From Oceanitalea stevensii (lineage in GTDB: Bacteria; Actinomycetota; Actinomycetes; Actinomycetales; Actinomycetaceae): DNA of 41,471 nucleotides. The stretch is taken from the NCBI RefSeq assembly GCF_014837105.1, contig NZ_JACSPO010000016.1, forward strand, positions 1-41,471. Direction: 5' to 3'. The notes beneath the pieces are model-generated. The model was given only the letters and a program-made list of their open reading frames with translations. It was not told the DNA's origin and did not search any database. Positions 13,291 to 28,053 of this stretch are shown here, one piece after another. Position numbers and translations under genes: made by a program. The number at the start of each line of letters is the position of its first letter. Within the stretch, counting starts at the first letter, position 1.

Positions 13291-14873
13291 CGGCCGACCA
13301 CCACGAGGTCGCCGACGGCCAGGCCCTCAGCGCTGACCTCGACGTACCCGTCGGCCGTGAGGCCGGTCTCGACGACGACGATCTCGGTGCGCTCACCGCC
13401 GCGGTCGACCTCCACACGGCTCTCCCCGCCGGCGCCGGCGGTCAGCGCGGCGACGGGCACGACGAGGACCTCCCCGCCGGTCGACTCGAGCGGGACCGTC
13501 ACGCGGACGTTGGAGCCGACGATCTCGGCGCGCTGCTCCTCGGTGATCTCGACCGGGACGAGGACGAGCTCGTGCCGGTCCCCGCCGCCACCGCCACCGC
13601 CGCCGTCCTCGCCGTCGCCCTCGCCGTCGGCGGTGGGCCGGGCGCTGGGGGTGCGCGTCTCCGTGACGGTCGCCTCGATCTCCTCCTCCCCCACGGTGAA
13701 GTAGGCCGTCGTCCCCTCGGGCACGAGGGCGGCGTCGGCGTCGGAGACGCTGGCGAGGACCTGGAGGGTCGCCCCGGAGATGGTGAGGGCCTCCCCGCTC
13801 ACCGTGTCCCCGCGGCGCACCATGACGGAGTCGACCCGGCGCGGCAGGGTGTCGACGTAGACGACCTCCGCCGCGGGCAGCGGGGTCATCGCGGTGTTGC
13901 GCGCCTCGGCGAGCGCGCGCGCGGCGTCCTCGACGGCGGTGGCGGCGGCGTCACGGGCGGAGCGCTCGGCGGAGGTGTCCGGGGCGGTGAGCGCCTCCTC
14001 GCGCTCGGCGCGGACGACCGCCAGCTCCTCCCGGGCCTGGGTGACGGCCTCGGCGCCCTCCGGCGCGGCGAGCTGGACGGCTCGCTCGGCGCGGGCCACC
14101 GCGGTGTCCAGCCGCAGCCGCTCCGAGCGGGGCAGCCCGCCGGCCGCACGGTCGACCTCTGCCTGCGCCTGCGCGTAGGCCTCCTCGGCCATCCGCAGCC
14201 CCTCACGGGCGGCGGTGAGCGCCTCGCCGGCCCCCTCCTCCGCGACGGGCGACGCGTAACCGGCCTCCTGGTAGAGGGCGTCGACGGCGGCGGAGGTGGC
14301 GGCGTCGAAGACGTCGGAGTCGCGGTTGCCGACGCCCAGGCCCAGCGAGTGCAGCGCGTCCTTGAGCTGGGTGACGTCGGGGCCCGAGCTGCCCACGCGC
14401 AGCGTGCGGTAGACGGGCAGCTCCCCGGGCAGCACGATGACCGGCCGCCCGGCGACCTCCATGATCACCTGCCCGGCCTCGACGAGGTCCCCGACCTCGG
14501 GCACCTGCCCGGTGACGATGGCGGGTCCACCCATGTCGGTGGTCTCGAGGGCCACGGAGACCGGGTCGTCGTAGAGCGCGTCACCGCGCAGGGTGAGGTC
14601 GGTGGACAGCTCGCGCTCCTCGACCGGCACGGTGATGAGCCCGGCCTCGGGCGGCGCGGCCTCCGCCGCACGCTGCGCCGGGGAGATGACGAGGTTGCTC
14701 ACCCCGATCCCGGCCGCGAGGCTCGCGACGGCGGTCGCGGCGACGACGACGATCGTCCGGTTCGCGCGGGGCGGCCGGACCCCGGGCGGCAGCTCCTCCT
14801 CGGGCTCCCCCGGCAGGTCGAGGACGGCGTCGACCGGCTCGCCGGGCTGCTGCCGGCGGCGGAGGCGGATCAC
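13287..14873 (-). CDS. Periplasmic adaptor / membrane-fusion protein (HlyD/MacA-like) with a peptidoglycan-binding domain
   Basis: An N-terminal TM anchor (IVVVAATAVASLAAGIGV) is followed by beta-barrel/lipoyl-like segments, a long coiled-coil (AEEAYAQAQAEVDRA...) and a PG_binding_1-like motif (GPDVTQLKDALHSLGLGVGNRDSDVFDAATSAAVDALYQEAGY). A poly-Gly acidic linker lies near the C-terminus. It overlaps both neighbouring genes by 4 bp. Confidence 0.8.
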   Translation of the reverse strand: MIRLRRRQQPGEPVDAVLDLPGEPEEELPPGVRPPRANRTIVVVAATAVASLAAGIGVSNLVISPAQRAAEAAPPEAGLITVPVEERELSTDLTLRGDALYDDPVSVALETTDMGGPAIVTGQVPEVGDLVEAGQVIMEVAGRPVIVLPGELPVYRTLRVGSSGPDVTQLKDALHSLGLGVGNRDSDVFDAATSAAVDALYQEAGYASPVAEEGAGEALTAAREGLRMAEEAYAQAQAEVDRAAGGLPRSERLRLDTAVARAERAVQLAAPEGAEAVTQAREELAVVRAEREEALTAPDTSAERSARDAAATAVEDAARALAEARNTAMTPLPAAEVVYVDTLPRRVDSVMVRRGDTVSGEALTISGATLQVLASVSDADAALVPEGTTAYFTVGEEEIEATVTETRTPSARPTADGEGDGEDGGGGGGGGDRHELVLVPVEITEEQRAEIVGSNVRVTVPLESTGGEVLVVPVAALTAGAGGESRVEVDRGGERTEIVVVETGLTADGYVEVSAEGLAVGDLVVVGR

Positions 14874-15931
14874 GCGTCCTTCCCGTACGCCGCGACGACG
14901 GCGTCGATGTCCGCCTGGTAGGTCTCGATGAACTTCTTCTCGAGCTCGAACTGGATCTCGAGCGACCGGGCCTCCACGTCCAGCTCCTCCTGGCAGCGGA
15001 AGTCGGCGACGGCGGCGGCGATCTCGCGCTCGCGGAGCTCGGCGAGCCCCATCTCCTCCATGACCTCCGCGACGGGGTCGCCACCGCCCGCGGCGTCCAG
15101 GGCCTCCCAGTCGAGGTTCTCCCAGTCGATCTCGGCGTCGGCCTTCTGGTAGAGCGCGTCGTACTCCTCGTAGAACTGCTCGGTCGCCGCCATGGGGGTG
15201 GTCATGCCGGTGATGCCGGCGTCAGCCATGCAGGCGGCCCACTCGTCGTTGACCTCCCGCATGCGGGGGTCCTTCTCACCGTCCTGGTAGAGCTGGTCCA
15301 TGGCCTCGAAGAGCTCGGTGAAGGCCGGGTCGGACCACGGGTCCCCCTCCTCGTAGACCTCGTGGGTGGCCAGGCCCTGGCAGCCGGCCTCCTCCCAGTC
15401 GTACTCCTCGAGGATCTCCTCGTCCTCGACCCACTCCTCCTCCTCGAAGGTCTGTGGGCCGTAGAGGGCCTCGAAGTAGGCCTCCTGCTCGGAGGCCGAC
15501 ATCCCGTTGACGTACTCGTCGTTGGGGTCGACCCACTCCTCCTCGGGCTCCGCGACCTCCTCCTCCTGCGCCGACCACGGGTCGGTGGTCACCCCGTAGC
15601 CGTACTGCTGGGCCCACTCCTCGGTGTTCCAGTCCTCGTCCTCGGTGACGATCGTGGTACCCATGTCGTACTCGACGGGCGTGTACTCGAAGCCCTCGTC
15701 CGCCATGCAGGAGGCGACGGTCTCCTCGACCTGCCGCATGCGCTCCGCCTCCTCGCGCTCCATCTCCTCCGGGTCCTGCCCGCTGCCCCAGACGACGCCG
15801 AGCGCCTCGTTGAGGGGGCTGTCCTCCCAGGTGAGCTCGGCGCTCTCGGCGGCGGGGCCGTCCGAACAGGCGGTCAGCGCCGCGAGAGCAGCGACGGAGG
15901 CAAGGACGACTCGGGCGGTGCGCATGGGCAT
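14870..15931 (-). CDS. Secreted lipoprotein, extremely acidic and Trp-rich, with an internal duplication (hypothetical)
   Basis: Signal peptide plus lipobox (LAALTAC, Cys22). About 12 Trp residues in EEW/DEW/DPW contexts and a very high Glu/Asp content. The motif x-ACMAD-xG occurs twice (VASCMADEGF and WAACMADAGI). It is the first gene of the adaptor-ATPase-permease operon, sharing a 4-bp overlap with the adaptor. Confidence 0.6.
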   Translation of the reverse strand: MPMRTARVVLASVAALAALTACSDGPAAESAELTWEDSPLNEALGVVWGSGQDPEEMEREEAERMRQVEETVASCMADEGFEYTPVEYDMGTTIVTEDEDWNTEEWAQQYGYGVTTDPWSAQEEEVAEPEEEWVDPNDEYVNGMSASEQEAYFEALYGPQTFEEEEWVEDEEILEEYDWEEAGCQGLATHEVYEEGDPWSDPAFTELFEAMDQLYQDGEKDPRMREVNDEWAACMADAGITGMTTPMAATEQFYEEYDALYQKADAEIDWENLDWEALDAAGGGDPVAEVMEEMGLAELREREIAAAVADFRCQEELDVEARSLEIQFELEKKFIETYQADIDAVVAAYGKDA

Positions 15932-16839: not shown

Positions 16840-16916
16840 GGTGGGTGTAGCTCAGCTGGTAGAGCGCCGCGTTGTGGTCGCGGATGTCGCGGGTTCAAGT
16901 CCCGTCACTCACCCGG
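16840..16916 (+). tRNA. tRNA-His (anticodon GTG), with encoded G-1
   Basis: Acceptor stem gGTGGGTG/CACTCAC with one G.T pair; D-arm AGCTCAGCTGGTAGAGC; anticodon stem-loop CCGCG-TTGTGGT-CGCGG; T-arm GCGGG-TTCAAGT-CCCGT; discriminator C; no encoded CCA. Confidence 0.85.
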
Positions 16917-16920
16917 AGAG

Positions 16921-16950
16921 CGAGGCCCGGACCGACAGGTCCGGGCCTCG
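16921..16950 (+). terminator. Perfect 12-bp stem / 6-nt loop hairpin directly after tRNA-His
   Basis: CGAGGCCCGGAC-cgacag-GTCCGGGCCTCG. GC-rich intrinsic-terminator-like structure; there is no U-tract, which is common in high-GC actinobacteria. Confidence 0.55.
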
Positions 16951-16980
16951 CCCATTTCCCGCGGCCCCGGCAGCGCCTCC

Positions 16981-17440
16981 GGCCCCCGGCTCCCGCCTCC
17001 GGGCCCCAGCTCCCGCCTCCGGGCCCCAGCTCCCGCCTCGGGGCCCCAGCTCCCGCCTCCGGGCCCCAGCTCCCGCCTCCCCCGGTCCACGCTGCTGATG
17101 CTGATCCGCGCGGCGGATATACCAGCAGCGCGGACCGGTATCAGCAGCGGGGTCCGCCCGGCATCACCAGCGGGGTCCGCCCACCTCCCCGCCCCCGGCT
17201 CCCGCCTCCGGGGCGCCGGTTCCCGCCTCCGGGCCCCAGCCTCCGGGGCGCCGGCTCGCGCCTCCGGGGCGCCGGCTCCCGCCTCCCCCGGTCCACGCTG
17301 CTGATGCTGATCCGCGCGGCGGATATATCAGCAGCGCGGACCGGTATCAGCAGCGGGGCCCGACCGATATCAGCAGCGGGGTCCGCCCGGCAGCAGCGGG
17401 TCCGGTTCAGCAGCGAGGTCCGCGGGGGCGCGGACCGTAC
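16981..17440. repeat. Composite non-coding repeat array
   Basis: Five tandem copies of a 20-mer GGGCCCCAGCTCCCGCCTCC (16981-17080) are followed by a roughly 45-bp unit containing the inverted repeat GCTGCTGAT...ATCAGCAGC around a GATATATC core (17081-17160). The whole block recurs about 206 bp later in degenerate form (17190-17370). At least eight spaced copies of (AT)CAGCAGCGGGG lie in 17121-17420. Confidence 0.7.
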
Positions 17441-17449
17441 GATCACGCG

Positions 17450-18136
17450 GTGGACGACGATCTCGGCGCGGCGCGCGCGCTCCTCAGCACCCGGCGCCTC
17501 GTGGTGCTCGACCTCGACGGTCCCCTCACCCGGCTCCTGCCCGGCCAGGAGTACCTCCGCGTGACGGCCGGCGCTCTCGAGCTCGCCCTCTCGCTCGGGC
17601 TCGAGCCCGACGACGACCTCGGCACCGAGACCGACCACGTCCAGCTCCTGCGCCTCGTCGCCGAGCGGGACCCGGACGCCGGACGCGTCGTCGAGCGGTG
17701 GTGCACCGAGCGGGAGGTCGCGGCGGCGGCCGGCGCCCTGCTCGTTCCCGGGGCCGAGGCCTTCGTCGTCACGTGCCTCGACCGGGGTGCCGCCGTCGCC
17801 GTCGTCACGAACAACGCACCGGAGGCGGCGGCCGCCGTCCTCGCCACGGGTGGGCCGGTCCTCGCAGGGCTCCCGGTGCACGGGCGGGACCCGGAGCGGC
17901 CGGAGCACCTCAAGCCCTCCCCGCACCCGCTGCTGGCCGCGGCCGAAGGCGCCGGCGTGGCTCCCGCGGACGCCGTCATGGTCGGCGACTCGCCCAGCGA
18001 CGTCCACGCGGCGACGGCGGCCGGGATGCCGTGCATCGGCCTGTCCCCTGACTCCGGGCGGCGCGCGGAGCTGCGCGCCGTGGGCGCGGTCGCGGCGGCG
18101 CCGAACCTGGCCGTTCTGCGCCCCGGCCCCGTCTAG
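17450..18136 (+). CDS. HAD-superfamily hydrolase (subfamily IA phosphatase-like)
   Basis: GTG start at 17450. Motif I is VVLDLDGPLT, motif III-like is VVTNNAPE, motif IV is VMVGDSPSDVHAATAAGMPCIG. It is followed 40 bp later by the GCHII fusion gene on the same strand. Confidence 0.75.
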   Translation: MDDDLGAARALLSTRRLVVLDLDGPLTRLLPGQEYLRVTAGALELALSLGLEPDDDLGTETDHVQLLRLVAERDPDAGRVVERWCTEREVAAAAGALLVPGAEAFVVTCLDRGAAVAVVTNNAPEAAAAVLATGGPVLAGLPVHGRDPERPEHLKPSPHPLLAAAEGAGVAPADAVMVGDSPSDVHAATAAGMPCIGLSPDSGRRAELRAVGAVAAAPNLAVLRPGPV

Positions 18137-18176: not shown

Positions 18177-19589
18177 ATGTCCCAGCTCGAGGAGCGTGCC
18201 GAACCCCTGGCCGCGCAGCCGCCCGCCGTCGTCGAGCGTGAGGTCGAGACCGTCCTGCCCACCCGGCACGGCGCCTTCCGGATGCTCGGCTTCCGTGACG
18301 TCACCGGCACCGAGCACGTCGCCCTGGTCATGGGGCTCACCGAGCCGGACCCGCTCGACGCGCCGCTCGTGCGGGTCCACTCCGAGTGCCTCACCGGTGA
18401 CGCCTTCGGCTCCTGGCGCTGCGACTGCGGCGAGCAGCTGGACGCCGCGCTGGCGGCGGTGGCCGCCGAGGGCGAGGGCGCCGTCGTCTACGTCCGGGGG
18501 CACGAGGGCCGCGGCATCGGTCTCCTCGAGAAGCTGCGCGCCTACGCCCTGCAGGACCTCGGCGCCGACACCGTCGACGCCAACCTCGCCCTCGGGCACA
18601 GCGCCGACGCCCGCAGCTACGACCAGTCCGCCGCGATCCTCCACGACCTCGGCGTGCACCGGATCCGCCTCCTGTCCTCCAACCCCGCCAAGGAGGAGGC
18701 CCTCAGCGCCCTGGGCGTCGACGTCGTCGAGCGGGTGAGCCTCATCGTCCCCGCCCACCCCGAGAACGAGGCGTACCTCGCGACCAAGCGCGAGCGCATG
18801 CGGCACGACCGCCCGCGCGCGGACGACGCCTGGGACGCCCTCCTGGGGGGTGCGGTTCCCGCCGTGACACCGGACGACCCCGCGCACGAGCTGGTGGAGC
18901 GCTACGGCCCGCTCGTCGCCCTCGGCTCCCACGCCGTCGTCGCCCAGCTCGGCCAGAGCCTGGACGGCTTCATCGCCTCGAGGACCGGTGACGCGGAGTT
19001 CGTCACCGGTGAGGAGGACCGCGAGCACCTGCACCGGCTGCGGGCGCTCGTGGACGCCGTCGTCGTCGGGGTCGGGACGGTCACCGCCGACGACTGCCGC
19101 CTCACCGTGCGCGCCGTCCCCGGCCACCACCCCGTCCGGGTGGTCCTCGACCCGCGTGCCCGCACGCCCCTCGCCTCCCACGTGCTCACCGACGGCGCGG
19201 CGCCGACCCTGTGGCTCGTCGGCCCCGGCGCCGTCGTGCCCGACGACCTCCCCGGCCACGTCCACGTCGTCCGCCTGGACGACGACGGCCCGGCGGCCCC
19301 GGCGCGCGTGCTCGAGCTGCTGCGCGAGCGCGGCCTGGGCCGGGTGCTCGTCGAGGGCGGGGGCCGCGTCGTCTCCGCCTTCCTCGACGCCGGCGTGCTC
19401 GACCGCCTCTTCCTCACGACGGCGCCGGTCCTCATCGGCGACGGCGTCCCCGGGGTCCGCTTCACCGGCTCCGACCTCCTCGCCGACGCCGTCCGCACCC
19501 GCACGCGCCGGTTCCTCCTGGGCGAGGACGTGTGCACCGAGCTGGACCTGCGGGCGCTGCGCTCAGCCCGGGCCGAGACCGCGCCGTAG
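18177..19589 (+). CDS. ribA: Bifunctional GTP cyclohydrolase II (RibA-like) fused to a RibD C-terminal-type (DHFR-fold) reductase domain
   Basis: ATG at 18177 follows AGGAAGGA. The N-terminal domain carries the GCHII zinc motif RVHSECLTGDAFGSWRCDCGEQL and GRGIGLLEKLRAYALQDLGADTVDAN, so the ring-opening Tyr is retained. The C-terminal roughly 230 aa match RibD_C/DHFR-like reductase (LDGFIA...VVVGVGTVTADD...RVLVEGGGRVVSAFLDAGVLDRLFLTTAPVLIGDG). No deaminase domain is present. The N-terminal extension in the track ORF is a frame artefact. Confidence 0.8.
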   Translation: MSQLEERAEPLAAQPPAVVEREVETVLPTRHGAFRMLGFRDVTGTEHVALVMGLTEPDPLDAPLVRVHSECLTGDAFGSWRCDCGEQLDAALAAVAAEGEGAVVYVRGHEGRGIGLLEKLRAYALQDLGADTVDANLALGHSADARSYDQSAAILHDLGVHRIRLLSSNPAKEEALSALGVDVVERVSLIVPAHPENEAYLATKRERMRHDRPRADDAWDALLGGAVPAVTPDDPAHELVERYGPLVALGSHAVVAQLGQSLDGFIASRTGDAEFVTGEEDREHLHRLRALVDAVVVGVGTVTADDCRLTVRAVPGHHPVRVVLDPRARTPLASHVLTDGAAPTLWLVGPGAVVPDDLPGHVHVVRLDDDGPAAPARVLELLRERGLGRVLVEGGGRVVSAFLDAGVLDRLFLTTAPVLIGDGVPGVRFTGSDLLADAVRTRTRRFLLGEDVCTELDLRALRSARAETAP

Positions 19590-20615
19590 GTCCGCCGCGG
19601 TGTCGGCCCACGTGCGCAGGTGCTGCCGGCGCGCGAGGGCGGCCGCGCGCCACGCCGCGCGCTGCTCCGTGTCGGTCAGCCACCGGCGCAGCACCCGCGC
19701 CCACGCGCCGGGGTCCGCGGGCGGCACGGCGGTGCCGGCCGCGTCGTCGGGCAGCGGCTCGGGCCGGCCGGTGAGGGCCTCGACGGCGCCGGTGCCCGCG
19801 GACACGACCGCGGGCACGCCGTGGGCGAGCGCCTCGGTGACGACGAGCCCGTAGGTCTCCACGAGCGAGGGGACGAGCAGCAGGTCGGTGCGCTGCCACA
19901 GCCCCTCGAGGGCGTCCCCGGTGACGACGCCGGGAAGCGACACCCGGTCCGCCAGCCCCACCGTGTCGAGCGCGCGGAGCAGGTGCTCGGCGACGGCGGG
20001 CTGGGCGGTGCCCGGACCCGCGAAGGTCGCCTGCCACGGCAGGTCGCGCACGGCGTCGAGCGCCGGGACGAGCCCGGCGTGGTTCTTCACCCGGGTGAGG
20101 GCGCCGAGCGCGAGGAGGTGCGGCGGGCGGCTACCTGCCGCGACCGCGGCGGGCTCGGCCCCGGGCTTGGCCACGAGGACGCCGGTCCGCCCGTAGCGGC
20201 GGGTGAGGTCCGCGGCCGCCCAGCGGCTCGTCGTGACGACGGCGGACGCGGCGTGGACGGTACGGGACTCCAGCGCGGCGAGCCGGTCCGCGTCCGCGCG
20301 CGGTAGTCCGAGCTCGGCCGGCAGCGGGAGGTGGACGAGGAGGACCACGCGCACGCCGGCGGCGACGGCGGCACTCACCTCCCCGGGGCAGGCACTGCCC
20401 ACGAGGCCGTCGAGCACGACGGTGCCGGACGTGCCCAGCGCCCCTCGCAGCGCCTCCCGCTCGGCCGGCCCGGGCCGCGGCCACGACCCCGGCAGGGCGA
20501 GCACCTCCACCGGCCCGTGCGCGGCCTGCCAGGCGCGGGCCAGGCACGCGTCGTAGACGTCGCCCCCGCTCGGCCCGTCCCCGCGCGCGGGGACGACGAA
20601 CCGCAGCGCCGGCAC
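19563..20615 (-). CDS. Glycosyltransferase, GT-B fold (GT4-like, group 1)
   Basis: 350 aa with the C-terminal EX7E motif ETYGLVVTEALAHGVPAV typical of retaining GT4 enzymes. Its 3' end overlaps the GCHII-fusion gene convergently by 27 bp. Confidence 0.8.
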   Translation of the reverse strand: MPALRFVVPARGDGPSGGDVYDACLARAWQAAHGPVEVLALPGSWPRPGPAEREALRGALGTSGTVVLDGLVGSACPGEVSAAVAAGVRVVLLVHLPLPAELGLPRADADRLAALESRTVHAASAVVTTSRWAAADLTRRYGRTGVLVAKPGAEPAAVAAGSRPPHLLALGALTRVKNHAGLVPALDAVRDLPWQATFAGPGTAQPAVAEHLLRALDTVGLADRVSLPGVVTGDALEGLWQRTDLLLVPSLVETYGLVVTEALAHGVPAVVSAGTGAVEALTGRPEPLPDDAAGTAVPPADPGAWARVLRRWLTDTEQRAAWRAAALARRQHLRTWADTAADLRRGLGPG

Positions 20616-20618
20616 CGG

Positions 20619-21005
20619 CTAGCTCCCGGGGAGCTCGAGTCGGTAGGTCGCCCAGGCGTCGGGGTGCTCGCGCAGCGTGACCTCCAGCGCCGTGTACGGG
20701 GTCATGTCCAGCCCCTCGGCGAGACGGTGGGCCACGTGCCGGGCCACGACCTCGGTGGTGGTGACGAGCCCCGCGAAGTCCTCGAGGTCGTCGAGGTTTC
20801 GGTAGCGCAGCGCGCCGGTGACCTCACCGAGCCGCTCGGTCGCCGCGCCGATGTCGATGACGACGCCGTGCTCGTCGAGCTCGGGGCGGAACCACGTCGC
20901 CTCGACGACGTAGGTGACGCCGTGCAGCCCCTGGGCGGGGCCGAAGAACGGGTCGGGCAGGCTGTGGGCGACCATCATGTGGTCGCGGACCGTCACGCTG
21001 AACAC
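20619..21005 (-). CDS. 6-pyruvoyl-tetrahydropterin synthase (PTPS/QueD, COG0720) fold protein, divergent subfamily
   Basis: 128 aa. MFSVTVRDHMMVAHSLP aligns to the QueD/PTPS N-terminus (first zinc-ligand His is present). The position equivalent to the CxxxHGH motif reads AQGLHGV, so the catalytic Cys and one zinc His are replaced. It is tightly packed between the GT and the dehydrogenase (gaps of 3 bp and 0 bp). Confidence 0.7.
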   Translation of the reverse strand: MFSVTVRDHMMVAHSLPDPFFGPAQGLHGVTYVVEATWFRPELDEHGVVIDIGAATERLGEVTGALRYRNLDDLEDFAGLVTTTEVVARHVAHRLAEGLDMTPYTALEVTLREHPDAWATYRLELPGS

Positions 21006-21980
21006 TCAGCTCTCCTCGGGGTAGCGGATGACGTGGCACAGGGCCGGGAGCCGGCCGGAGGCGATGTCCGCCATGGTCCCGGGCAGCTCGGCGAAGGCGC
21101 TGGCGCCGGTGAGGAGGGCGTCGAAGCGCGGGTCGCGCAGCGCGTCCAGGGCCACTCCCAGCCGGTCCGCGGTGGTGCGGCGGGCGCGGCGGGCGGCGCT
21201 GACGGCACCGACCTGGCTGGCGCGGACGGTGAGCCGACGGGCGTGGAAGGCCTCCCCCAGCGGGACGCGCGGCGCGTCGGTGCCGTACCACGACAGCTCG
21301 ACGACCTCCGCCTCCTCCCCGGCCAGCCGCAGGGCGGTGGCGAGGCCGGCCTCGCTCGCCGAGCAGTGCAGGACGACGTCGCAGTCCCCGGCGGCCTCCT
21401 CCGGGGTGACGAGCTCCAGCCCGAGGCGCGCGGCGAGCTCCCCACGGCGCGGGTCGACGTCCACCACCTGGAGCCGCCCGAGCGGGAAGCCGCCGAGCAG
21501 GGCGGCGACGGACGCGCCGATCATCCCCATGCCGACGACGGCGACCCTGTCGCCCAGCCGTGGGGCGGCGTCCCACAGGGCGTTGACGGCGGTCTCGACG
21601 GCGCCGGCGAGCAGGGCGCGCTCGGTGGGCACGTCGTCGGGCACGGGGACGACGGCGGTGGCGGGCACGACGTACCGCGTCTGGTGGGGGTACAGGCAGA
21701 ACACCCGCCGGCCGACCAGCTCCTCGGGGCCGGCGTCGACGACGCCGACGGAGAGGTAGCCGTACTTCACCGGGCCGGGCAGGTCGCCCTCCTGAAACGG
21801 GGCGCGCATGAGCGGGCGGACGGCCTCGGGCACCGCGTGGCGGTGGACGAGCGTCTCGGTGCCCCGGCTGATCGCCGAGGCCAGGGTGCGGACGAGCACC
21901 TCGCCGGGTCCGGGAGCGTCGAGGGACGTCTGCCGGAGCTGTCCCTCCTCGGGACCGACCGTCCAGTACGCCTCGACCAT
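21006..21980 (-). CDS. Zn-dependent medium-chain dehydrogenase/reductase (threonine/sorbitol-dehydrogenase-like)
   Basis: True start is an internal ATG at about 21978-21980 (MVEAYWTVGPEEGQL...). The GroES-like N-domain reads GEVLVRTLASAISRGTE. A Rossmann GxGxxG-like motif is VAVVGMGMIGASVAALL. The upstream part of the track ORF is an artefact. Confidence 0.8.
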   Translation of the reverse strand: MVEAYWTVGPEEGQLRQTSLDAPGPGEVLVRTLASAISRGTETLVHRHAVPEAVRPLMRAPFQEGDLPGPVKYGYLSVGVVDAGPEELVGRRVFCLYPHQTRYVVPATAVVPVPDDVPTERALLAGAVETAVNALWDAAPRLGDRVAVVGMGMIGASVAALLGGFPLGRLQVVDVDPRRGELAARLGLELVTPEEAAGDCDVVLHCSASEAGLATALRLAGEEAEVVELSWYGTDAPRVPLGEAFHARRLTVRASQVGAVSAARRARRTTADRLGVALDALRDPRFDALLTGASAFAELPGTMADIASGRLPALCHVIRYPEES

Positions 21981-27121: not shown

Positions 27122-27700
27122 TCAGCGGCGCCGGTCGTAGGTGAGCACGACGTTCCCGCCGGCGAAGGTCCGCACGTCCGTGAGCTCGACCTCGCTCGGG
27201 GCGAAGCCGGCTCCCTCGAGCATCGGGTGCCCGGCGCCGGCGACCACGGGGTAGACCTTGACGATGAACCGGTCGATCTCCGCCAGCAGCGCCCCGGCCA
27301 GCCGCGCACCGCCCGCGAGGTAGATGTCGAGCGGGGAGTCCTCGGCCTTGAGCCGGCGCACGAGCGCGACCGGGTCGTCACGGACGATGGTGACGTCGGG
27401 GTCCAGCTCCTCCTGCGTCGTCGAGACGACGTACTGGCGCAGGTGCGCGTACGGGCTGGTGACGCCCTCCCGCAGTCCCGGCTCGTAGGTCCGCCTGCCC
27501 ATGACGACGGTGTCGAAGCGCGTGTTCGGGCGGTCGGTGAGGCCGAGGTGCGCACGGCCGTGGCTGGGGATCGTGTCCGGGTACTCCTCCAGCATCCACG
27601 CGGTGTAGTCCTCCGGCTGCGGGTAGAAGTCGAACTCGTCGCTCGGGCCGGAGATCCGGCCGTCGAGCGAGACGGCGATGTAGTAGGTGAGGCGGCGCAC
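27122..27700 (-). CDS. Dihydrofolate-reductase-family (RibD C-terminal domain-like) reductase
   Basis: GTG start at 27698-27700, preceded by GGGGGAG. LTYYIAVSLDGRISGP...VVMGRRTYE...IYLAGGARLAGALL matches the RibD_C/YwjB-like DHFR family. The upstream part of the track ORF is an artefact. Confidence 0.75.
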   Translation of the reverse strand: MRRLTYYIAVSLDGRISGPSDEFDFYPQPEDYTAWMLEEYPDTIPSHGRAHLGLTDRPNTRFDTVVMGRRTYEPGLREGVTSPYAHLRQYVVSTTQEELDPDVTIVRDDPVALVRRLKAEDSPLDIYLAGGARLAGALLAEIDRFIVKVYPVVAGAGHPMLEGAGFAPSEVELTDVRTFAGGNVVLTYDRRR

Positions 27701-27828
27701 GGAGTCTCCCCCTGTCGGTGACGTCGGTTCGCGGCCATCCTGGCGGTGACGGCCCACCGCGCGCCAGGGAATACGCGAGGACGATGACGGCGGGCAGCCC
27801 CGCCGTCGTCGTCCTCGCGCCTCCCGGG

Positions 27829-28053
27829 CTACTTCTTCTGGACGGTGATCGACCACTCCGCGTCACCGATGCGGCGGTAGTCCGTCACCGGGTAGCCCTC
27901 CTGCGCGGCCCAGCGCGGGATGGCGTCGGTGGCCTGGGTGCAGTCGAAGTGGATGGTGAGGTGGTCGCCCTCGGGCAGGGCCGCGATGGCGTCCTTGGCC
28001 TCGACGAGCGGGAAGGGGCAGACCTGTCCGGAGGTCTGAAGGGTGATGGGCAC
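27829..28053 (-). CDS. TusA-like sulfurtransferase (YeeD/SirA family)
   Basis: 74 aa with a GTG start after GAAAGGA. It has the CPxP active-site motif (QVCPFPL). It lies immediately downstream of YeeE/YedE, as in tsuA-tsuB pairs. Confidence 0.7.
   Translation of the reverse strand: MPITLQTSGQVCPFPLVEAKDAIAALPEGDHLTIHFDCTQATDAIPRWAAQEGYPVTDYRRIGDAEWSITVQKK

Follow-up and report, generated by a model that had tools for sequence, protein, structure and literature searches.

The 41,471-nt stretch of Oceanitalea stevensii DNA analyzed here (contig NZ_JACSPO010000016.1, positions 1 to 41,471; hereafter, the window) carries a gene in which a complete GTP cyclohydrolase II (GCHII) domain is joined, through a conserved linker, to a RibD_C-type reductase domain. 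The domain content and catalytic residues of this fusion, its synteny and a pattern of co-variation across related loci suggest a model, to which we assign a probability of roughly 0.62, in which the predicted bifunctional enzyme and the HAD-superfamily phosphatase encoded upstream of it convert GTP into a ribityl-diaminopyrimidinone, and thereby provide the entry to a non-riboflavin pathway centered on a protein of the PTPS-IV subfamily. The gene and its two domains are located as follows.

18177..19589, plus strand: fusion gene encoding a GCHII domain, a linker and a RibD_C domain, 470 amino acids (open reading frame, Pfam, NCBIfam, homologues and structural model)
18234..18737, plus strand: GTP cyclohydrolase II domain, residues 20-187 (PF00925, E = 3e-63, 212.6 bits against a cut-off of 23.3)
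18936..19457, plus strand: RibD_C reductase domain, residues 254-427 (PF01872, E = 9e-38, 130.5 bits)

The reading frame at 18177-19589 runs without a stop over 470 amino acids on the plus strand, and a Shine-Dalgarno-like AGGAAGGA lies 8 nt 5' of its ATG. The GCHII-like region extends to approximately residue 211, passes the NCBIfam ribA model TIGR00505 (225.3 bits against a cut-off of 205.85) and scores 229 bits with the RibBA of M. tuberculosis (4i14) and 187 bits with the RibA of E. coli (2bz0), sharing about 60% identity with the GCHII half of actinobacterial RibBA. In the alignment to 2bz0, C71, C82 and C84 correspond to the zinc ligands C54, C65 and C67 of E. coli RibA, Y123 to Y105 and R146 to R128, and both the Cys triad and R146 are invariant across 20 aligned family members. 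Similarity to the stand-alone reductases of related clusters spans residues ~236 to 460, and the family alignment shows conservation of the reductase catalytic Asp (D306) and of the E393-GGG nucleotide-binding motif. Neither a CMP/dCMP-deaminase domain nor a 3,4-dihydroxy-2-butanone 4-phosphate (DHBP) synthase domain was detected in the protein by Pfam or NCBIfam. Their absence is also evident from the full-length models, which match over half their length and far below cut-off: RibBA models align through their GCHII half only (model positions ~210-406; 276 against a cut-off of 569), and TIGR00326 (RibD) covers model positions 128-341 only (95 bits against 156). A first-pass annotation of the window, made from its sequence alone, had described a complete GCHII fused to RibD_C in one gene lacking a deaminase. 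Pfam, NCBIfam and the individual residues bear this description out, and the domain mapping onto E. coli RibA that it proposed finds the Cys triad, the Tyr and the Arg all retained.

The fusion architecture is old and widespread in the Actinomycetota, non-textbook and yet not rare. In a collection of 5.8 billion proteins, the GCHII and RibD_C domains occur together at similar length in all of the best 120 matches, which descend from 96% identity (Georgenia sp.) through Ornithinimicrobium, Arthrobacter, Austwickia and the Propionibacteriaceae. More than 120 clusters at 90% identity share this architecture, and at least 16 of the best 150 representatives of a library clustered at 50% align continuously through both domains, at identities as low as 38%. 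The linker (residues 212-250) is itself conserved, with W219, G225, V227, P228, Y243 and L246 invariant in a 20-sequence alignment, and it is helical in the AlphaFold model (predicted local distance difference test, pLDDT, 75-90), the AF2 model as a whole being of moderate confidence (pLDDT 77). The first-pass annotation had noted that the two domains might prove to be separate genes joined by a missed stop or a frameshift. Such an assembly or annotation artefact can be practically dismissed: it is excluded by the intact, uninterrupted frame, by full-length homologues that include a 96%-identical protein in another Georgenia, the clusters of the same architecture and the representatives matched through both domains, and by the conservation of the linker, so that the gene is truly single. 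On the other hand, calling the fusion unusual was an overstatement, since it is widespread in the Actinomycetota and routinely annotated as GTP cyclohydrolase II; the window gene is a further member of a large, already catalogued and experimentally orphan family and cluster. Public annotation of the family is inconsistent (P0002, P0120, P0121, P0123).

In the proposed pathway, the N-terminal domain, as a canonical Tyr-type GCHII, would convert GTP into 2,5-diamino-6-ribosylamino-4(3H)-pyrimidinone 5'-phosphate (DARPP), formate and pyrophosphate. The RibD_C domain would then reduce the ribosyl moiety with NAD(P)H and no prior deamination, giving 2,5-diamino-6-ribitylamino-4(3H)-pyrimidinone 5'-phosphate, from which the HAD protein would most likely strip the 5'-phosphate. 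The phosphatase is placed right after the reductase because HAD-GCHII-RibD_C triple fusions exist (P0030, P0033 and P0241), in which the HAD domain is N-terminal, in the same order as the genes of the window. The module as a whole would constitute the entry to a PTPS-IV pathway involving an MDR-like dehydrogenase, an SCO6650-type T-fold protein and a GT4 glycosyltransferase, and not a part of housekeeping riboflavin synthesis. T-fold proteins usually recognize pterins and purines by their 2-amino-4-oxopyrimidine edge, a binding mode that would suit an intermediate with a retained 2-amino group. The four genes that accompany the fusion in the window are the following.

17450..18136, plus strand: HAD-superfamily phosphatase gene, 228 amino acids (Pfam Hydrolase/HAD_2/HAD), proposed 5'-phosphatase for the reduced pyrimidine
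19563..20615, minus strand: GT4-family glycosyltransferase, 350 amino acids (Pfam Glyco_trans_1_4/Glycos_transf_1), last gene of the convergent operon
20619..21005, minus strand: PTPS-IV protein, 128 amino acids (PF01242; PDB 3d7j, SCO6650, E = 2.9e-35)
21006..21980, minus strand: divergent MDR-superfamily (BchC/threonine-dehydrogenase-like) NAD(P) dehydrogenase, 324 amino acids, first gene of the convergent operon

The fusion lies tail-to-tail with the dehydrogenase/PTPS-IV/GT4 operon, the 3' ends of the GT4 and fusion genes overlapping by 27 nt (19563-19589). Because this convergent operon is present, the five-gene block is recognized as an orphan cluster of the SCO6650-SCO6655 ('PTPS-IV') type, a context that the first-pass annotation missed even though it described the fusion gene itself correctly. 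The PTPS-like protein is, on sequence grounds, the ortholog of Streptomyces coelicolor SCO6650. It carries the FGPAQ signature, reading 'FFGPAQGLHGVT', with F20-G21-P22-A23 and H27-G28 invariant and Gln24 not among the invariant columns, and it lacks the catalytic Cys and the third zinc-binding His (HGH motif) of true PTPS and QueD. FGPAQ is the signature that defines the PTPS-IV subfamily, and PF00925 and PF01872 were reported in the PTPS-IV neighborhood in a 2017 study of neighborhood networks (PMC5445326). The dehydrogenase is more divergent: its matches to Pfam ADH_zinc_N and 2-Hacid_dh_C are weak, those to NCBIfam BchC/HpnZ-like models likewise fall below cut-off, and its PDB matches are confined to the Rossmann part. 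Genes for creatininase, methyltransferase-like, flippase-like and CDP-alcohol phosphatidyltransferase proteins, found in larger clusters, were not detected in the 41-kb window with Streptomyces protein queries, and the window hence carries a minimal version of the cluster. This form, shared with Georgenia sp. AZ-5, is the smallest among the loci sampled and is tightly packed. The cluster is flanked by unrelated genes, with an oligoribonuclease gene and tRNA-His on one side and genes for DUF808 and NAD synthase proteins on the other.

The HAD gene ends 40 nt before the fusion begins, in agreement with the first-pass annotation. HAD homologues are found directly upstream of the fusion at three other loci (L001, L084 and L088) and nearby at a fourth (L083), with adjacency seen in Ammonicoccus, Ornithinimicrobium, Austwickia, a Georgenia-like metagenome contig and a divergent cluster (L141). 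The HAD protein passes no NCBIfam equivalog model, and its assignment is therefore to the superfamily only; its suggested role as the linked dephosphorylating step, comparable to that of riboflavin-pathway HAD phosphatases (YigB/YbjI/YcsE/PYRP2 type), nevertheless gains credit from the adjacency and the triple fusions. As to gene spacing, the 19563-19589 overlap leaves no space for a terminator between the fusion and GT4 genes, and on the minus strand the dehydrogenase stop abuts the PTPS start while 3 nt separate the PTPS stop from the GT4 start, a spacing that suggests translational coupling. The PTPS-IV protein is publicly named '6-carboxytetrahydropterin synthase' despite its missing catalytic motif.

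The genes that accompany the fusion were compared across 166 related loci, gathered through a genome scan, a metagenome scan and exact look-ups and searched by tblastn with the cluster proteins of the window and four extra Streptomyces cluster proteins. Both collection scans gave at least 600 rows each, and the locus counts represent a sample, not a census. The genome scan, which used the fusion alignment, returned mostly ordinary RibBA loci and at least four full fusions, and supplied the controls for comparing Lys with Gln and Tyr with Met. In high-GC loci, GC3-based calling picked antisense shadow open reading frames, and tblastn with defined queries and pre-called genes was used instead. 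In the core comparison set of 52 loci of at least 6 kb with PTPS-IV, the dehydrogenase lies beside PTPS-IV in all 52 loci listed and GT4 in 51 of them. Synteny of the fusion with this triad is seen in Georgenia, Ammonicoccus, Austwickia, Ornithinimicrobium, Arthrobacter, Brevibacterium, Dormibacteria, Caldilineaceae and metagenomes, and gammaproteobacteria of the Halomonas type carry the cluster as well (L071, L137).

Within these loci, the type of cyclohydrolase co-varies with the presence of a creatininase-family gene. The fused cyclohydrolase-reductase is present in 13 of the listed loci and in the window, and in these 14 cases the switch position is invariably Tyr and a creatininase gene is never found. 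An unfused Met-type cyclohydrolase (Leu in one case) is present in 11 listed loci from Streptomyces and Amycolatopsis, all 11 with an adjoining creatininase-family gene (Pfam PF02633, E = 1e-63), and a Tyr-type enzyme that is not fused occurs in five listed loci, of which two have a creatininase-like gene at a distance. Among the loci listed, Met or Leu at the switch position is confined to the unfused cluster genes of Streptomyces and Amycolatopsis; the window enzyme, with Tyr123, lacks the Met of the SCO6655-type enzymes that form formamidopyrimidine (FAPy). SCO6655 is reported (Spoonamore et al. 2006) to stop at the formylated FAPy because it has Met in place of the Tyr required for deformylation. 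The creatininase family includes the archaeal FAPy deformylase ArfB. The larger clusters also hold a methyltransferase-like protein, an LPG_synthase_TM (flippase-like) protein and a CDP-alcohol phosphatidyltransferase. Since the pairing of Met with creatininase is strict and creatininase is missing from all fused Tyr clusters, the pattern fits a picture in which both cluster types would deliver DARPP, the Met enzyme and creatininase in two steps and the fused Tyr enzyme in one. In Streptomyces-type clusters, a formyl-retaining, SCO6655-like Met-type cyclohydrolase, a creatininase/ArfB-like deformylase and a separate reductase would thus reach the same intermediate, and the fused Tyr-type enzyme would render the deformylase unnecessary.

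The identity of the substrate reduced by the C-terminal domain is central to this model. Reduction before deamination is the established order of archaeal and fungal riboflavin synthesis (PMC8256712). That the domain would act on non-deaminated DARPP is suggested by the lack of a deaminase in the cluster, by a Gln/Asn-type residue and by a similarity ranking headed by archaeal reductases. Its best PDB match is 6p8c, annotated as a DARPP reductase (100 bits, E = 1.8e-27), with further scores of 80 bits for 7lrh, 78 bits (E = 8e-21) for 2azn of M. jannaschii and ~72 bits (~1e-19) for bacterial RibD, against 39 bits (5e-9) for the DHFR-like Rv2671 (4xrb) and 27 bits for DHFR. By sequence, then, the domain is much nearer to pyrimidine reductases than to DHFR-like members of the superfamily, and the ranking speaks against the generic DHFR-like protein that the first-pass annotation had considered as a possible refutation. 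Furthermore, Gln257 aligns with a Lys of bacterial RibD (3zpc, 7lrh) and with an Asn of the archaeal enzymes (6p8c, 2azn). In B. subtilis RibG this position is Lys151, to which the complex structure of that enzyme reportedly assigns the selection of the deaminated ring. Among the genome-scan matches listed, Lys occupies the equivalent position in 40 of 40 RibD proteins from rib operons, and among the loci listed Gln is found in 12 of 14 cluster-linked reductases, the remaining two having a His (the Dormibacteria member) and an alignment gap (Caldilineaceae). The product named by the first-pass annotation, 2,5-diamino-6-ribitylamino-pyrimidinone 5'-phosphate formed by a reduce-first route, is consistent with both the similarity to archaeal DARPP reductases and the substitution of Gln for Lys.

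Several observations weigh against the proposed module. The C-terminal domain does not reach the trusted cut-off of either pyrimidine-reductase model, TIGR00227 (119 against 150) or TIGR01508 (104 against 186.45), so that family assignment does not settle its substrate. No enzymology on any fused member was found in the literature. Six of the 11 listed Met-type clusters have no RibD_C gene within 10 kb, so the pathway may not always require the reduction. A RibD_C gene without a nearby GCHII is seen in some PTPS-IV clusters (L141, L148), and the fusion is separated from the triad in two Arthrobacter genomes. With RibD_C or GCHII missing in some clusters, the entry module is more variable than the dehydrogenase-PTPS-GT4 core.

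The low family scores would also suit a domain that acts as a DHFR-like reductase on a later, pterin-like intermediate, in which case the fusion would couple the first step of the pathway to a late one. The RibD_C fold is common to DHFR, Rv2671 (4xrb) reduces dihydrofolate, and a pterin-like ring is the expected ligand of the adjoining T-fold protein. This arrangement is nonetheless improbable, given the gap between 100 bits for 6p8c and 39 or 27 bits for Rv2671 and DHFR, the conservation of the catalytic Asp and of the ribitylphosphate-region motifs of RibD, and the fact that fusions usually join consecutive steps, the fusion to HAD fitting a phosphorylated ribityl product. A low probability likewise attaches to the fusion being a housekeeping RibA-reductase of riboflavin synthesis that follows the archaeal and fungal order, the deaminase, as a separate protein, and the remaining rib genes being encoded elsewhere. 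Its GCHII domain is indeed ~60% identical to that of RibBA, passes the ribA cut-off and keeps the Tyr, the reduce-first order is an established riboflavin route (PMC8256712), and the two Arthrobacter genomes separate the fusion from the PTPS-IV triad. Against this, no ribB, ribH, ribE or F420 genes are found among the annotated genes of the window, which also lacks a deaminase and a flavin mononucleotide (FMN) riboswitch, the Rfam scan of the window having returned three tRNAs only. Other scanned Actinomycetota have ordinary operons, the norm in related taxa, where a GCHII gene of the RibBA type and a Lys-type RibD reductase region are ~2 kb apart, and the fusion is linked to the PTPS-IV triad across phyla. 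Of the three RibA homologues of S. coelicolor, moreover, two are genuine GCHII enzymes and one serves a new, non-flavin function; the cyclohydrolase of the cluster is present there alongside RibA copies that function in riboflavin synthesis (PMC13151069).

The idea that the module supplies a ribityl-pyrimidine precursor for the deazaflavin cofactor F420/FO has several points in its favor. The Streptomyces-type cluster mirrors ArfA, ArfB and ArfC in combining a FAPy-forming cyclohydrolase, a creatininase-family deformylase and a reductase, and Streptomyces and Amycolatopsis are F420 producers. PTPS-IV has also been described as 'involved in the synthesis of F420' in a 2016 review (PMC5041015), although that claim cites unpublished work. 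We nevertheless consider this supply role very unlikely. Among the Pfam-annotated genes of the window and the annotated related loci there is no fbiC/cofGH, cofC/D/E or deaminase; the invariant glycosyltransferase and, in larger clusters, the CDP-alcohol phosphatidyltransferase and flippase-like protein have no F420 role, and the cluster extends to Halomonas-type gammaproteobacteria (L071, L137).

If the bifunctional enzyme does open a non-riboflavin PTPS-IV pathway, a possible continuation, tentative and on balance unlikely, is a route to a glycosylated pterin that is independent of GTP cyclohydrolase I. In such a route, GCHII would make DARPP, and the reductase and HAD protein would give 2,5-diamino-6-ribitylaminopyrimidinone, the ribityl 2'-OH of which the MDR-like dehydrogenase would re-oxidize; reduction followed by oxidation would thus equal the Amadori step of GTP cyclohydrolase I. 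The resulting keto-amine would close to 7,8-dihydroneopterin, to be processed or chaperoned by the zinc-less T-fold PTPS-IV protein and glycosylated by GT4. Where the cluster is larger, a membrane-associated pterin (or ribityl-pyrimidine) glycoconjugate could be tethered or exported by the CDP-alcohol phosphatidyltransferase and the flippase-like protein. A pterin glycoconjugate, if confirmed, would be a class of metabolite undescribed in the Actinomycetota. There is a precedent for diverting the GCHII product into pterins in the chlamydial bypass, where RibA and TrpF route it to dihydroneopterin via an Amadori-type isomerization (PMC4161248). The window has no TrpF-like isomerase, unlike that system, and reduction followed by 2'-oxidation would be its hypothetical chemical equivalent.

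The window cluster can be compared with several known systems. It shares with S. coelicolor sco6650-sco6655 an orthologous PTPS-IV, the dehydrogenase-PTPS-GT4 core and a gene of the GCHII family, and both are functionally orphan. They differ in that Streptomyces-type clusters have an unfused Met cyclohydrolase and creatininase-family, methyltransferase-like, flippase-like and CDP-alcohol phosphatidyltransferase genes, whereas the window has a Tyr enzyme fused to a reductase and a HAD gene. With the archaeal and fungal ArfA/ArfB/ArfC and Rib7 systems, the proposed route would share the reduction of DARPP before deamination, and 6p8c, 2azn and 5xux are the closest solved relatives of the C-terminal domain. 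ArfC and Rib7, however, are stand-alone enzymes that feed riboflavin or F420, whereas the window reductase is fused to a bacterial GCHII, has non-flavin neighbors, falls below the TIGR01508 cut-off and carries Gln, not Asn. Bacterial RibD and RibBA resemble the fusion in its canonical GCHII, nearest to M. tuberculosis RibBA (4i14), and in the reductase fold and catalytic Asp, but the fusion lacks a deaminase or DHBP synthase domain, has Gln for Lys and lies outside a rib operon, with no FMN riboswitch. Lastly, the toxoflavin ToxB/ToxE system likewise begins with a paralogue of GCHII that is not encoded in the rib operon. Its ToxE comprises both deaminase and reductase, as a complete RibD does, and the intermediate used in toxoflavin synthesis is the deaminated one. 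None of the annotated genes of the window resembles ToxA, ToxC or ToxD, which leaves the toxoflavin-like analogy drawn in the first-pass annotation without support.

Despite a crystal structure, one in vitro activity and thousands of homologues, no product has been assigned to the SCO6650/SCO6655 cluster since 2006. A search for the cluster gene combination and the SCO665x locus tags found nothing functional in the literature, and the unpublished F420 remark is the only functional claim found in print. With the first two or three steps physically fused, their order is set, which speaks for a pathway that retains the 2-amino group, while the alternation of Tyr-fused and Met-plus-creatininase enzymes offers a simple, testable account of the loss of deformylation in SCO6655. 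Together, the minimal cluster, the step order implied by the fusions and the complementarity of Tyr-fused and Met-plus-deformylase types make the question posed in 2006 directly testable, and the cluster lends itself to heterologous expression and to the search for new metabolites. Its genes should not be annotated as riboflavin or queuosine enzymes.

Other features of the window lie outside the cluster, among them a second RibD_C protein.

27122..27862, minus strand: stand-alone RibD_C/DHFR-family protein (Pfam E = 1e-11)

This second protein, whose existence the first-pass annotation had correctly noted, was rejected as a cluster member: it is 33% identical to the fusion reductase domain over 55 amino acids, reaches only 27% identity to the RibD_C gene located close to the Georgenia sp. 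AZ-5 cluster, and has unrelated ArsR, DUF488 and AHSA1 genes as neighbors. A 353-amino-acid open reading frame at 14870-15931 on the minus strand has no Pfam match; its N-terminus resembles that of a lipoprotein (…LAALTAC-SDG), and its body is extremely acidic and rich in Glu, Asp and Trp. Between tRNA-His and the HAD gene, in a non-coding stretch of ~530 nt (16915-17449), a 206-nt unit occurs twice with an 89% match, each copy consisting of a GC-rich tandem repeat of 20-21 nt (CGCCTCCGGGCCCCAGCTCC, ~5 copies) followed by a 37+37-nt palindrome. It could be an element resembling repetitive extragenic palindromes (REP) or miniature inverted-repeat transposable elements (MITE), situated at the expected promoter site of the plus-strand genes.

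Several of the related loci show arrangements of their own. In the metagenomic cluster L141 (13355-14739), a RibD_C gene is paired with a HAD gene, and in L148 (11434-13530) a 332-amino-acid RibD_C protein with an N-terminal extension of ~100 amino acids lies beside a LigB-type dioxygenase. In Streptomyces locus L049 (10610-13923), as in L065, L068 and L081, the Met-type cyclohydrolase is followed by ornithine cyclodeaminase/mu-crystallin, AlaDH_PNT_N and saccharopine-dehydrogenase-like genes, and no RibD_C gene was detected in these four clusters. The PTPS-like genes beside the fusion in metagenome-assembled genomes of Dormibacteria (L004, 12283-12654) and Caldilineaceae (L005, 12443-12823) deviate from FGPAQ..HGxT, reading 'FGPASRLHGHSY' and 'WHSHHY'; their products retain the His motif of true PTPS to a greater extent and may be intermediates between catalytic PTPS and PTPS-IV. 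In an Arthrobacter contig with a complete large cluster (L087), a heliorhodopsin gene (13373-14176) lies ~650 nt from the fusion, a proximity that is probably coincidental.

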